A stretch of DNA of 63,407 nt, filler included. It is 15 parts of 15 records of this genome, joined end to end, with 100 filler letters (N's around TTAATTAATTAA, not from the genome) between each part and the next. Parts side by side here need not be neighbours in the genome. Positions count along the whole stretch, not along the records: positions 1 to 3,045 come from SRR7504441_92849; 14 more parts are not named here. One strand, 5' to 3'. Both the position numbers and the translations under genes were made by a program. A model generated the notes under the pieces. That model was not told the origin of the DNA. It ran no database searches and saw only the letters and a program-made list of their open reading frames with translations. Shown piece by piece: positions 1 through 5,663 of this stretch (positions within the stretch are counted from its first letter, which is position 1; the number at the start of each line of letters is the position of its first letter).

Positions 1-180
1 TAGCAGGTGGCTCAGCAGCGCGCGCCTGCGGGCGAGGCAGCGCTTGAACCCACAGATCCTGTTTGCGTCCTTCTCGGGCAGGTGCTCGGAGGCAAACTCG
101 TCCAAGCTGTCGTCCAGCTCGCACAAGCCGCCGGCCTCCAGTGTCCACAACTGACTCCTCTGCGCTGAATCCGCCGCCAT
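1..180 (-). CDS. Probable Sfp/AASDHPPT-type 4'-phosphopantetheinyl transferase, N-terminal fragment (3' truncated)
   Basis: The minus frame from ATG at 180 reads MAADSAQRSQLWTLEAGG...EHLPEKDANRICGFKRCLARRRALLSHLL, resembling the 'L..E..RI..F....R.R.L.S.LL' start of Sfp-type PPTases. Only 60 codons are visible. Confidence 0.45.
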   Translation of the reverse strand, partial: MAADSAQRSQLWTLEAGGLCELDDSLDEFASEHLPEKDANRICGFKRCLARRRALLSHLL

Positions 181-311
181 TGCACAGCAAGTACAGTAAT
201 AGCGAGGGTTTCTGAGCCACTAATTCAAAGCTGAGCAGGAGTGTTAATCGAATACTGGCCACAGATTCTGAGTGTCAGGCCCTTTGTGGTGTACAACAGC
301 CCAAAAACGCC

Positions 312-387
312 GTCCGGAATCCGCCAGCCCGGAATCCGCCTGATCATGTGCGGTCCGGAATCCGCCAAGCCCGGATCCGGCTGATCA
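312..387 (+). repeat. ~41-nt tandem duplication built from CCGGAATCCGCC units in a divergent intergenic region
   Basis: CCGGAATCCGCC at 314-325, 329-340 and 355-366, with a variant at 371-381. Confidence 0.8.
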
Positions 388-805
388 GAAAGTTGTCAGC
401 AGCGAGCAAAATCTAGCTAGAGGTTCAGCCGCCGATCGATACCGATCGCGACATTAGCGACATGAACCTTGGCTCACGGATCGATATCGATCGATATAAT
501 AATTTTATTATCGAGTCGGATGTAACTATCGACCATCGATTAATCATGATCTAATCAATCATGACGATCATGATTGATCAAGGCCCCCGCCCCTTGGTGG
601 ATCTGCACACGGCCGGACCATGCTGCCAGTGCGCAATAAGTGCGCAACTCTAGAATCATCTTCGACTCCACGACTCCATCGCTATCACCTTACGAGTACG
701 TCTACTGCAGCTAGTACCCGCGCCGCGTCTTCAGTTCCAGGCTGATTTGCTGCAGAAGCCCAACGGTCAACCGGCAAGCGAGTGAGTCATCACACACCAG
801 GACCG

Positions 806-2823
806 ATGGCACGCGACCCAGCATCAGCCGAGACCGAGCTCCGCGCACTGTTCGCGCAGATCGACCGGAACAACAACGGGCAGCTCGCGGTTGACGAGCT
901 CCTGCGGGTGGCCGCGCTCGGGGCCCGGCGCCTGCCGAGCGGCGTTGTGCGGGTAGGTATTCGGGGAGCACGCCGGGCAGTTTCTAAGCTTCTGTGACAA
1001 GGACGCCGACATGAGCCTCAGCTGCGACGAGTGGCTGGCCGGTATTCTCAAGGACACCGCCGAGATGCCCCAGGACGAGTTCGACGCCGGTTGGATCCAA
1101 CGGATGAAGGACTGCATCGCCGCAGCGGACGCAGCCCCTCCGGTGCCCGAGCCACGCAAGGTGCCCCGCCGCTGGAGGGCGGCCACCAGCCGCGGCAGGT
1201 GGTGGATTTGATCCACGAGCGCGTGGCGGCCGGTCGGGTGCCGTGCTACTCTTTTGAGTACTTCCCACCGCGGACCCCCGAGGGTGAGCGCCGAACCACC
1301 CGGGAAGCGGCCCGAACAGAGGGCAGGGATCAGCAACCTGTACGACAGGCTGAACCGGATGGCCAAGCTGGACCCGCTCTTCATGGACTTCACCTGGGGC
1401 GCGGGCGGGTGGGCGGCCATTCAGGCCAGGCCGACCAGTGAGGGCCAGATCGACATCCGACCTGACGCTCGAGCTTTCAACCAACTGTAAGCAACAGACA
1501 GGCAGCTGGCCAGCCCTGGGCCAGCTGCTAGCCGGCGCAGGCGTTGATGTGAACATGCACCTGACCTGTACAAACATGGAAAAAGAGAAAGTTGATTTGG
1601 GCTTGAACGGTTTGCTGACGCGTCTCGTTCCCTGTGTGAGTGTTCTGCAGGTGCCAAGGACGGCAAGATCCGAAACATCTGCGCGCTACGCGGGGACAAA
1701 GCAGAAGGGCAGGTGCAGGCTTGTGTATGGTTGCAGTGTCTCACGCTGGATGCGCAGGAGACATGGACAGCGGCTGAAGGCGGGTTTACCTGCGCCCTCG
1801 ATCTGATTAAATACATCCGGGAGCACCACGGCGACTACTTTGGCATCTCATGCGCTGGGTAATCTCAACGGTTTCTGCTGGGCATTGATGTTGCGGGTTT
1901 GGGCAGCTATCCGGAAGGCCACCCCGACAACATCAAGCCGGTCGCTGAGCTGGGCCGGGAGCTCACCGAGACTGAAGCGGTGTGTTGGTGGCGTTGGCAG
2001 TGACGGTTGAGCGCGGGGGGCGCAGGCGAGGCTTGTAGTCAACCCGGATGGGGAGCAGTTTGTCTGCAGCGATGAGAATATGCAGGTGGGTTCTGGTGCA
2101 AAGCTCGCTGCTAACGCCGCTATGTTCAGGTCGAGCTCGACTATCTCAAGGCTAAGGTCGTTATATATCACATTATTATTGCGCCGTGACATCATTGATG
2201 TCTCACAATGCATTGTGGCTGAGATTTTCTCTGCAGGTGGATGCTGGAGCCGAGGTGATTATTACGCAACTGTTCTACGATGTCGAAGTGTTCCTCACCT
2301 TTGTCAAGGTGCCGACGCGCCAGCCATCTCCGGTGTATAACCGGGCCGGTGCAGAACTGTCGCGCGATGGGGATCGAAGCGCCGATTCTCCCGGGGATCA
2401 TGCCAATTCAGGCCTTTGGAGGCTTCACCCGCATGACTGGGTGATTGACACATCTGGCTCCGGATGATTGCCAAACAGGTTCTGCCGGACTCGCGTGCCT
2501 GACGACGTGAGGAACGCAATGAATGCCATCTCCAGCGACAGTGACGAAGACAAGGTAAATAGGCGCTCCAGCCAACAAGTTGCGGTGAGCATTTGCTTGC
2601 ACAGGCTGCCGTCAAGGCATACGGAATCAATCTTTCGACAGAGATGTGCCAGAGGATCCTGGCAGAGTCCGACTGTAAGGCGCTGCACTTTTACACGCTC
2701 AATTTAGAAAAGTCTGTGCTTGCAATCATGAAAAATCTTGGCTTGCTGCCGGAGTCTGCCACGGCCGAGCACGGATCTCAAGAGAACGAGGATACCACCA
2801 AGGGCACTCGGATTGCGGCATAA
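806..2823 (+). CDS. MTHFR: Methylenetetrahydrofolate reductase (catalytic barrel only) with N-terminal EF-hand pair; ~14 small introns
   Basis: Spliced motifs [69 protein letters not shown] loops [12 protein letters not shown] and [12 protein letters not shown]. Introns include 908-956, 1161-1198, 1284-1326, 1409-1448, 1502-1540. Confidence 0.95.
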
Positions 2824-3045
2824 TTTCAGTTAGTGCTCATATTTATTTAGTAGTAGACTTTACGAGCTTCCGCATTAAAGAGTTAGATTGCAACGCACAC
2901 GCACCTTTGATCGGCCGCCTATGATTCGGTTTCAGCTGGCGCGCGATTCGTACGGCGTACATGACATTCAATGTATGTTATGTCAGGAACGCCTCGAAAT
3001 TCCAGGACTACGCCGCGCTATAAGTAGTTCGTACAGCTGATTGGT

Positions 3046-3755: not shown

Positions 3756-3786
3756 CCGGAATCAAACGGCAAAAATCTGGGCTAGA

Positions 3787-5663
3787 ATGAACGTGACCGA
3801 GTGTGTGGGAAGCACTGGCCGGCTGCAGGCGGGCAAGGGCAGAGGCAAGGGTCCATCCCCAGCCCGAGGCGTCGCCACACCGCCACAGCCCAACTGGCGC
3901 GAGCGGCGGGCGCTTGCCGAGCAGGCGAGCGCGCGTGCGGCTGCAGTCGAGGCTGCCCGGCGGGAGGAGTCGCGGGGTCGCGCGAGCGGCCGGCCCATCC
4001 GGCTGCTGCTGGTCCAGAAGGATTCGCTGCCGCCCGAGGAAGCGGCCGCGCTGCTTGACCGGGAGCTGACGGCTCGACCGGCCGAGCTGGTGCTGCTGCC
4101 CGAGAATTTTATCCCGAGCGGCCAGCTGCGGCCGAGTGACCCATCCCACCCGCACCACAGGGCGATTGGGGCGGTGCTGGCCCGGCACCAGGCGACCGGG
4201 TGCATCGGAACGGGGGACGCGGTGGTGGGCCCCGGGGTTAAGGCCAAGGAATCAGTACTGCTGGGCCCGAATGGGGCGGTGCTGGCCTGCTGGGACAAAA
4301 AGTGCGTGTGGGGCGGGGGGGCGTTCAGGATGCAGCCGGGGGACGGGATGGCGCTGGCGGATACGCCGCTTGGGCGGCTGGGAGGGGTGGTCTGTGCGGA
4401 TATCGAGCAGAGCGACACCCACCGGGCAGTGCTGGCTGACGGAGGCGCCAATTTCATACTCAACCCAGTGAGCATCCCCGGGCTCGGCCGGCATGGCTAC
4501 CAGCAGTCGGGGCGCGAGAGGATGTTTGCGCGATGGCAGGCCTCGGTCTGTGGGTTTGATCAATCGCAGGCCCGCCACGCCCAGACGTGCGGCGCGGTGC
4601 TCGTGCGATGCGACCAGGCGGATGAGCTCGAGTTCGGCAGGTTCATGGTGAGGCGCCCGGCGGTCCGGCCGTCCCAGCCGGCGCGGGCAGGCCAGCTCGT
4701 GTGTGGTAACGCCTTACCTGAGCGTGTATGCGCCCGCAGCTCGCGAGTGCGTGTTTGGGTGCACTGTAATGCCTCAGGACTGGTGGGCGGTCTGGCCTGG
4801 GCGCCGCTGGATGAGGGTGCAGGCGGCCATTCGGAGTAGCCCCGGCTGTGCGCAGCACCGACCAGCTGAATAGAGGTCCAGCTGGTGAGCAGGCCAGCTG
4901 AGGGCTGCTGGCTCAGGCAACCGGGTGGAGCAATGGGAGCTCAGCATGGGATCCCGGCAGGCCGGAGCCGTGACGGCCGTCTGCTATCTGCCAGCACCAG
5001 AATCGGCAAGCTGTGCCGCAGTGGTGGCCAGCTGGCGGGGTGGGCGCAGGCTTGGCGGTAGGTGGCAGCGTTCGAGGCGGGGGCGGTGCTCCTGTGGAAG
5101 GTGCACGACAACAGCTTCCGGCCCCCGACTGAGCTCAGACCGGCCGATGGGCGAGCTCTGGCCAACCTAGTCGCTCTCGGCCCGCTTGTCGGGGCCGCGC
5201 CGGCCGCCGGTGCTCCAGGTGCGGCCTGAAAGGGCCCGCCCACCATGGGTGGTGGCAGTGGCGTGGGACGCATTCTCTCAGAGCGCAGTGCCGTGCAGTG
5301 ACAGTCTGTTGGAGCTGCTGTCTGGCCCCAGCTCGCAGCCATCCGGTCAGCTGTCCGAGCATCTAACAGCCCGGCCCTCCGGCGAGAATGTGCGCGCTGC
5401 TGCTCCCGCGGGTTAGGCGGGTTGCAGGTGGAGATTGTGCAACGCGATTCGGGCCAGCTGATGTACACGCTTCATGGTGTGCACAACGGAGAGGTGCCTG
5501 CGGGTTGATCAGCTCAGCTCAGGGCGATGAGCTAGGTGCAAGCGGCGGCGGGTGGGGGCAATCACGTGGTCGCAGGCCTGCTGGCTCGCCGGCCGAGTTG
5601 AGTTGGGCTGGCAGGGTGCGCGAATGGCGCAGTGGTGATGTGGCACTTCACCCAGAACACTAA
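3787..5663 (+). CDS. Carbon-nitrogen hydrolase (nitrilase superfamily) with a WD40-like C-terminal region; intron-containing, 3' end approximate
   Basis: Glu-Lys-Cys triad motifs LVLLPEN, WDKK, GGVVCADIE. Downstream exons read GAVTAVCYLP, AAFEAGAVLLWKV and VVAVAWD. Confidence 0.7.

Follow-up and report, generated by a model that had tools for sequence, protein, structure and literature searches.

An EF-hand module spliced in frame to a short MTHFR recurs on unrelated enzymes of marine eukaryotes

Results

Gene structure and transcript evidence

The window, that is the whole stretch of 63,407 nucleotides analysed here, consists of 15 small contigs joined by N-linkers, and the gene under study lies on the first of them (positions 1-3045); the contigs beyond 3045 are separate pieces and were not used for taxonomy. 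The gene (806..2823, + strand) has 15 exons and 14 introns of 38-80 nt and encodes 456 aa, which comprise an EF-hand module, a linker and a short MTHFR of the eukaryotic type. The module, a portable unit of about 94 aa (806..1136, +), is formed by exon 1 (806-907) and by exon 2 from 957 onwards, in the order helix, EF loop 1, helix, EF loop 2, helix and extra C-terminal helix. Loop 1 (residues 20-31; 863..898, +) was recognised by its loop pattern and by a Pfam EF-hand_6 match on exon 1 (E 3e-5, under the curated cut-off). Loop 2 (residues 48-59; 996..1031, +) follows 28 residues after loop 1 in exon 2, which alone has no Pfam match. Both fit the canonical EF-hand loop pattern used for scoring; an earlier sequence-only reading of this DNA had already noted two EF-hand loops. 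The extra helix (residues 73-93; 1071..1133, +) carries the conserved F76, W80, R83 and M84. Behind an Ala/Pro-rich linker, intron 2 marks the border between module and enzyme; the MTHFR catalytic barrel occupies exons 3-15 (1199..2703, +), and a 39-aa tail with the stop codon (2704..2823, +), ending in a conserved 14-residue motif, completes the frame. No second copy of the module was found in the window.

Twenty public sequencing runs share part of the stretch, none of them holding half of its words or more, and the RNA evidence comes from the four RNA runs among them that match best, all marine metatranscriptomes. RNA contigs in X1 and X4 (two studies) cross intron 1, which lies within the module (908..956, +; 49 nt, GT..AG, phase 0), and X1 record 2 crosses intron 2 (1161..1198, +; 38 nt, GT..AG, phase 0). 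In this record the pieces 1019-1158, 1197-1282 and 1326-1407 are contiguous, with no other letters and no differences, leaving 140 nt on one side of 1161-1198 and 86 nt on the other. Because X1 record 2 runs from 140 nt of exon 2 into exon 3 and then exon 4, a single spliced RNA carries both the EF part and the MTHFR part. The sequence-only reading had predicted that these two introns join the EF loops in frame to the barrel and had pointed to the junction at 1161-1198 as the place to look; the RNA bears this out. X2 record 5 probably bridges the same intron, with 50 unlisted letters that match a depth of 1.28 in the bin 1092-1173. Keeping either of the two introns unspliced leads to an early stop.

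Among the matches listed, at least 10 of the 14 introns are bridged by RNA. The segment 1502-1540, supported by an RNA loose end with 10 of 11 letters matching, is probably a GC..AG intron, all others being GT..AG; a placement of this intron 5 at 1487-1540 was disfavoured by the gene model and by comparison with P0005, a second protein of the same architecture described below. The introns 1409-1448, 1610-1650 and 1713-1757 were placed by frame and homology to P0005 only, and the transcript was pieced together from several RNA contigs, none of which covers the whole gene.

The 3' end was resolved by X1 record 4, which spans 2603-2897 and terminates in a loose end of 21 A's at 2897, where the genomic DNA behind is not A-rich (5/30). 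This defines a 3' UTR at 2824..2897 (+) with the poly(A) site 74 nt past the stop codon, which leaves no space for a SAM-domain exon, and the SAM-domain sequences of two relatives gave no tblastn match in the window. The C-terminal SAM-binding domain is thus absent, as the sequence-only reading had claimed. That reading was also right about the short tail behind the motif LHFYTLN, but its estimate of about 35 aa falls short, the stop lying 39 aa after the motif. The cis fusion of an EF-hand module with MTHFR is confirmed as real; separate EF and MTHFR genes, as well as a hidden SAM exon, are ruled out by the RNA.

In the upstream region, an ATG at position 180 on the - strand opens a frame of 60 aa that runs off the contig end (window 1-180), pointing away from the MTHFR gene. 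A bidirectional promoter may occupy the 625 nt that separate the two; direct repeats (2 x 38 nt, 309-346 and 350-387) and palindrome-rich inverted repeats (433-493 and 538-579) lie in this intergenic region. On the next, separate contig, a frame at 3781-4650 encodes a carbon-nitrogen hydrolase domain (PF00795, E 1e-7).

The MTHFR part and its short relatives

PF02219 was matched on all four barrel exons scanned, on one of them weakly (E 0.039). Searched against the PDB, eukaryotic MTHFRs were the best matches (E 4e-74 to 1e-68), and the best bacterial-type entry of about 300 residues reached E 4e-45. The protein shares the eukaryotic-type barrel and the catalytic motifs with the solved eukaryotic enzymes (PDB 8uy2, 8qa4, 6fcx). 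By motif, not by structure, we located S120, E122, T153, D214, Q317 and H412 as named in the accessible text of PMC9900621, which describes a Ser-His-Glu(-Thr) active-site set and a pterin-anchoring Asp and Gln in MTHFR; H182 was marked in the barrel as well. The enzyme looks active, and it would be expected to catalyse the reaction and to be SAM-insensitive.

In contrast to eukaryotic MTHFR, the window protein is devoid of the linker and of the regulatory domain (PF21895), and it has instead the 39-aa tail, the N-terminal EF module and a barrel insert of about 32 residues after YPEGHP (about 1920-2085), at which the alignment with 8uy2 falls into two stretches. This insert is absent in solved MTHFRs; it is apparently common to the short protist enzymes (trimmed lengths of about 330 versus about 300).

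The same architecture, EF-hand plus PF02219, was found in one further protein, P0005 (459 aa). It is 59% identical to the window protein in the module and 76% in the enzyme part; PF02219 matches it with E 8e-101, and PF21895 is absent in P0005 and present in the control P0154. A single-sequence fold of full-length P0005 was tried as a source of module-barrel contacts and was unusable (pLDDT 37).

Is the missing regulatory domain particular to the fused enzymes? We took as relatives the best 120 of 7925 matches to the enzyme part of P0005. PF21895 occurs in two of these 120, 98 are at most 420 aa long and a single one, P0005, has an EF-like loop ahead of the barrel, counts which are not a frequency for eukaryotes because sequences from the clade of the query rank highest. 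Monosiga, Emiliania, Ectocarpus, Cafeteria, Cymbomonas and Chrysotila are among the named sources of short forms, with lengths of 332 aa in Monosiga brevicollis, 355 aa in Emiliania huxleyi and 370 aa in Cymbomonas tetramitiformis. These short protist MTHFRs, including those of Ectocarpus and Cafeteria, consist of the same barrel only and, unlike the window protein, have no EF module; three for which identity was measured are 52-61% identical to the window enzyme, and four unnamed, unfused relatives reach 69-75%. The closest paralogues have the same short tail without the EF module. A related form of the C-terminal 14-residue motif occurs in the last 45 residues of 21 of the best 120 relatives, Cymbomonas included.

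Other unusual architectures were seen among the short protist MTHFRs. Four of the best 120 are fused to NDK, and there are fusions with PF05221/PF00670, domains that we take to be adenosylhomocysteinase, as well as tandem double barrels of about 700 aa (the set P0102, P0103, P0105, P0143, P0109 and P0068-P0074 covers all unusual forms). The MTHFR of Leishmania is reportedly a studied example of a short, SAM-insensitive enzyme. According to the accessible text of PMC5995969 and PMC13001107, the regulatory domain is a feature of eukaryotic MTHFR orthologues. The view of the sequence-only reading that it is typical of eukaryotes is right in this sense for animals, fungi and plants, but it does not extend to the protist enzyme group found here. 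The window enzyme belongs to a short type that is common among protists, and the wide occurrence of SAM-domain-free MTHFRs in this search runs counter to the textbook picture of the eukaryotic enzyme.

In an MTHFR tree of 18 rows, the window gene falls into a six-member clade (100/100) in which two EF-fused and four unfused enzymes are interleaved: the fused P0005 groups with the unfused P0071, P0342 and P0075 (100/99), and the fourth unfused enzyme branches beside the window enzyme. No member of this clade carries a taxon name. A tree of 38 rows gave a similar result, and grouping the two EF-MTHFRs as one clade could not be rejected (p 0.089). The loss of the SAM domain predates the fusion and occurred independently. 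Whether the two fusions had one origin or two, the module joined an enzyme already without SAM domain and was gained or lost more than once.

Anatomy of the module

A profile of the 11-row module alignment A1 scored 154.7 bits on the window module over positions 1-94. An AF2 model of the P0005 module, computed with an 11-row alignment, has a mean pLDDT of 84.6 and helices at 5-19, 29-46, 57-67 and 73-93, and predicts that the module folds as a domain of its own, an EF pair plus an extra conserved helix. In 37 sequences, F16, D20, E31, L32, F36, D48, E59, F76 and W80 are invariant, and R83 and M84 are conserved in at least 90%. Of 49 modules, 31 have two canonical loops, and in 12 loop 1 departs from the pattern, including that of Telonema subtile. 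In the subtype of this sequence, loop 1 is longer by two inserted residues, and loop 2 is mostly retained. The loop sequences suggest that Ca2+ is bound by both EF loops of the window module.

Pfam matches of A1 were to EF-hand families in 10 of 11 rows and to SPARC_Ca_bdg in 9 of 11. In contrast to calmodulin-like and SPARC-type pairs, the loops of the module are 28 residues apart and are followed by the extra helix; those of calmodulin are about 36 residues apart. The 60 PDB sequence matches listed, of 191, span only the EF pair, and none of them passes profile position 66. Foldseek with the module returned nothing at E 0.001 or better, and the best VIA match, a doublet-microtubule protein (Z 8.2, rmsd 2.5, 82 aligned, 10% identity), is within the range of common arrangements. 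The fold matches are all of EF-hand type and are middling or generic, and the ESM Atlas gave generic EF-hand clusters for the module and no usable match for P0005. Dockerin_1 (PF00404) matched none of the 11 rows of A1 at E up to 1, no dockerin entry is among the Foldseek and VIA matches listed, and the RIIa clan with Dpy-30 is not among the 12 Pfam families matched by A1. A prediction of a module homodimer with Ca2+ scored 0.00, in a run made without alignment and without folded controls, and speaks neither for nor against such a dimer.

The module family and its partners

Is the module a common element of other proteins? A search with exon 2 found two proteins among 36 candidates, in which the same N-terminal segment precedes DJ-1/PfpI and ADK-family domains. 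A second search found 17 proteins among 301 candidates, with the module N-terminal in all 17 and eight partner families covered: MTHFR, DJ-1/PfpI, ADK, aldo-keto reductase (AKR), Kelch, galactokinase-like, class I aldolase and NDK-like. When 1.84 billion representatives were searched with a profile, at least 150 matched, so the family is larger than the part seen here. Among the 147 new representatives listed, 41 have a near-complete module at 60 bits or more. In 35 of these the module begins in the first 50 residues, and in none of the 41 is it present twice; most other matches are generic multi-EF-hand proteins aligned over the loops only. This search added AhpC-TSA, PfkB, GST, DUF924, APH, FYVE and phosphagen kinase as partners. 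In total, at least 15 partner families beyond MTHFR have Pfam support at or near the cut-off, with GHMP/galactokinase-like among the supported ones, NDK at a borderline score and ABM just under the cut-off; the scores of deiodinase-like and ubiquitin-like partners are weaker and below the cut-offs. Finer partner labels, such as adenosine kinase or UMP-CMP kinase, are provisional. Near stand-alone modules with acidic Ala/Glu/Pro tails also occur (P0210, P0217, P0228).

Seven NDK-like members (P0047, P0049, P0050, P0052-P0054, P0057) begin with MGICNS in place of the EF module; in the two compared, enzyme identity is 76-82%. The MGICNS start resembles what we take to be a myristoylation/palmitoylation (dual-acylation) signal.

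The module-bearing members are all marine eukaryotic sequences, most of them from metatranscriptome collections. A taxon name was attached to one of 30 members looked up, Telonema subtile (EukProt, cultured-cell), with the module on DUF924; this module is of another subtype, and the window module lies outside its supported clade. The Kelch fusion cluster has 12 members from JGI, Logan, ENA and MERC. A pattern scan of metagenomes yielded at least three loci from 597 pattern matches, of which one matches weakly outside the module and looks bacterial, while the other two are module genes on records no larger than a transcript. These two are the relatives found as DNA, and the window is the only place where the fusion is seen in genomic DNA. 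Pattern scans that reach close relatives only gave 0 of 99 in viral contigs and 1 of 592 in prokaryotic genomes; the latter is a chance match at the end of an ORF, presumably of a DNA ligase, and not a true relative. A literature search, which covered neither most subscription journals nor any supplements, found no description of the fusion or of the module. Within the literature covered, the promiscuous EF-hand module of about 94 aa, a probable tag, is thus undescribed.

The module tree comprises 49 rows and 94 columns and has many open forks. Left out were 9 of 44 rows from the profile search (partial or low-scoring) and 5 of 17 from the second search (near duplicates or truncated; P0067 for P0017). 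The tree follows module subtype, not partner: one clade (100/100) contains modules of aldolase, NDK, AKR and peroxiredoxin fusions, and NDK modules occur in three separate parts of the tree. For four groups picked after the tree was seen, AU tests rejected a single clade, namely NDK (p about 1e-99), DJ-1 (2e-5), AKR (0.001) and Kelch (0.02). Module identity is 75-99% in seven pairs with different partners (99% for P0010 versus P0012) and 40-54% in seven pairs with the same partner, although same-partner modules can be close, as in three NDKs (88-92%). Two modules compared as DNA are identical at 236 of 270 nt with 14 synonymous codon changes. They are distinct genes, so that for this pair, at least, a common trans-spliced exon is not the source. 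Some of the metatranscriptome proteins are mosaic, as seen when P0011 is compared with P0052 (73% over the first 45 NDK residues, 96% overall), and particular module-partner pairs may therefore be assembly chimeras. The module may have spread by exon shuffling or gene conversion; exon shuffling would fit the phase-0 intron that borders the module, a feature observed in the window gene only.

Discussion

Here, we observed directly a cis fusion with its splicing and its 3' end, the recurrence of the fused module on unrelated partners and its lability on MTHFR. Our best explanation, held with middling confidence, is that the module serves as a portable Ca2+-binding docking or localisation tag for a shared, putative receptor. 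A shared address is likelier than an MTHFR-specific Ca2+ switch because the module caps many unrelated soluble enzymes. Indeed, an address is the best reading of a module that is interchangeable among folds, is joined by a variable Ala/Pro linker, exists in near stand-alone forms, is optional on MTHFR and alternates with an acylation-like start.

On this reading, a short MTHFR of an old protist type acquired the tag of about 94 aa, which a lineage of marine protists, Telonema among them, would place, one copy per protein and mostly N-terminal, on unrelated soluble enzymes. Ca2+ in the two EF loops would open or stabilise a conserved hydrophobic surface (F16, F36, F43, F76, W80), and this surface would dock on one shared receptor or structure, such that glycolytic, phosphotransfer, redox-detox and one-carbon enzymes could gather in the same place, possibly only when Ca2+ rises. 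The MGICNS start in the NDK-like family may be another address in the same slot. We infer the docking, the receptor and the site from the sequences.

Could the module instead act in cis, with Ca2+ turning the attached enzyme up or down and one-carbon flux following Ca2+, not SAM? The two canonical loops in the window gene and in P0005, the occurrence of the fusion in a pair of sequences with 76% identity in the enzyme part and the missing SAM domain are in line with such a regulator. The module was, however, found on TIM barrels, P-loop, GHMP and PfkB kinases, thioredoxin folds and a beta-propeller, which argues against a fold-specific allosteric domain since such a domain is not expected on unrelated folds. 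Nearly stand-alone modules and a variable Ala/Pro linker likewise speak against it, as does the general loss of the SAM domain in relatives, the closest of which have no module. On the same grounds, the proposal of the sequence-only reading that Ca2+ control replaced SAM feedback is poorly supported, and we regard regulation in cis as unlikely.

A tag that needs no separate receptor, in which modules bind each other with Ca2+ and gather the enzymes into mixed oligomers or a condensate, is similarly doubtful. Mutual binding would favour the observed clustering by subtype and not by partner; one module copy per protein agrees with it, and the near stand-alone acidic versions could be scaffolds or competitors. 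Moreover, eukaryotic MTHFR dimerises, in the accessible text of PMC13001107, only via the regulatory domain that is missing here. Against this stand the lack of tandem copies in all 41 near-complete matches and the many short MTHFRs without module, which indicate that assembly of the enzyme does not need it.

We give little weight, too, to the possibility that the module is a passenger. In this case two exons with a favourable start context or a strong promoter would spread by shuffling and conversion, and would persist because they buffer Ca2+ or aid solubility, without directing the partner. Selection for a bulk property of this kind is hard to reconcile with aromatics outside the loops, including those in the extra helix, that are invariant across modules only 40-55% alike, or with partners skewed to soluble housekeeping enzymes, unlike those of a random passenger (an impression, made without background comparison), even though the phase-0 intron at the module border, the gain or loss of the module on MTHFR and NDK, the 99% identical modules of P0010 and P0012 on different partners and the distinct genes behind the two DNA-compared copies would all suit a mobile exon pair. 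Finally, it is very improbable that the wider family is for the most part made up of metatranscriptome chimeras built on a small number of genuine EF-hand genes, as the mosaic NDK-like sequences and the predominance of metatranscriptome collections might suggest, because the window fusion is in genomic DNA with matching RNA, the module is joined to DUF924 in the cultured-cell Telonema subtile entry, clusters of mixed origin show several of the fusions repeatedly (such as the 12-member Kelch cluster) and modules 40-54% alike on the same partner families are too divergent for shared assembly words.

A docking tag of the kind we favour has a counterpart in dockerin (PF00404), a small two-loop Ca2+-binding docking module appended to many unrelated cellulosomal enzymes. 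The module described here, too, has two loops, putatively binds Ca2+ and sits on many unrelated enzymes. In contrast to dockerin, it is eukaryotic and mostly N-terminal, has a full entering helix and the extra C-terminal helix, and is without a known cohesin-like partner. The module-bearing enzymes look cytosolic since they start directly with the module. An intracellular cellulosome-like system, in which a shuffled tag would dock dozens of housekeeping enzymes of glycolysis, phosphotransfer, redox detoxification and the folate/methionine cycle on one scaffold (for instance the flagellum or a contractile cortical cytoskeleton) when Ca2+ rises, goes one step further, and we put it forward only tentatively.

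Two known eukaryotic systems resemble parts of the proposed docking. In the accessible text of PMC3494852, RIIa/Dpy-30 domains and AKAP helices form a pair in which a small domain tethers effectors, including an NDK, to a shared flagellar scaffold; the module has another fold, and RIIa/Dpy-30 has no Ca2+ loops. In Toxoplasma, glycolytic enzymes relocate to the pellicle on a Ca2+-requiring signal (PMC2563030), a precedent for moving soluble energy enzymes to a cortical site. The abstract of that study names no shared fused module, whereas here each gene encodes a candidate tag of its own. In telonemids, the cortical cytoskeleton is elaborate and includes fibres that are presumed to contract (PMC8924772). 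A cytoskeleton of this type is a possible docking site, which is a conjecture, and the window gene is only possibly of telonemid origin.

It has long been debated, mostly on the basis of weak, transient contacts, how soluble enzymes of eukaryotic cells are brought together where they are needed. A shared fused tag makes this question testable, since it lists the member enzymes, can be fitted to GFP and can serve as bait for the receptor. It would be a rare intracellular parallel in eukaryotes to dockerin tagging, in a little-studied branch of the eukaryotes. If the more tentative cellulosome-like version were true, the tag would define a metabolon that is hard-wired in the genes and gated by Ca2+, and the sequence alone would tell which enzymes belong to it. 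The module might also be of use as a small Ca2+-dependent recruitment module in cell engineering. An enrichment of EF-hands in marine protists is described in a SAG preprint (10.64898/2026.04.17.719054).
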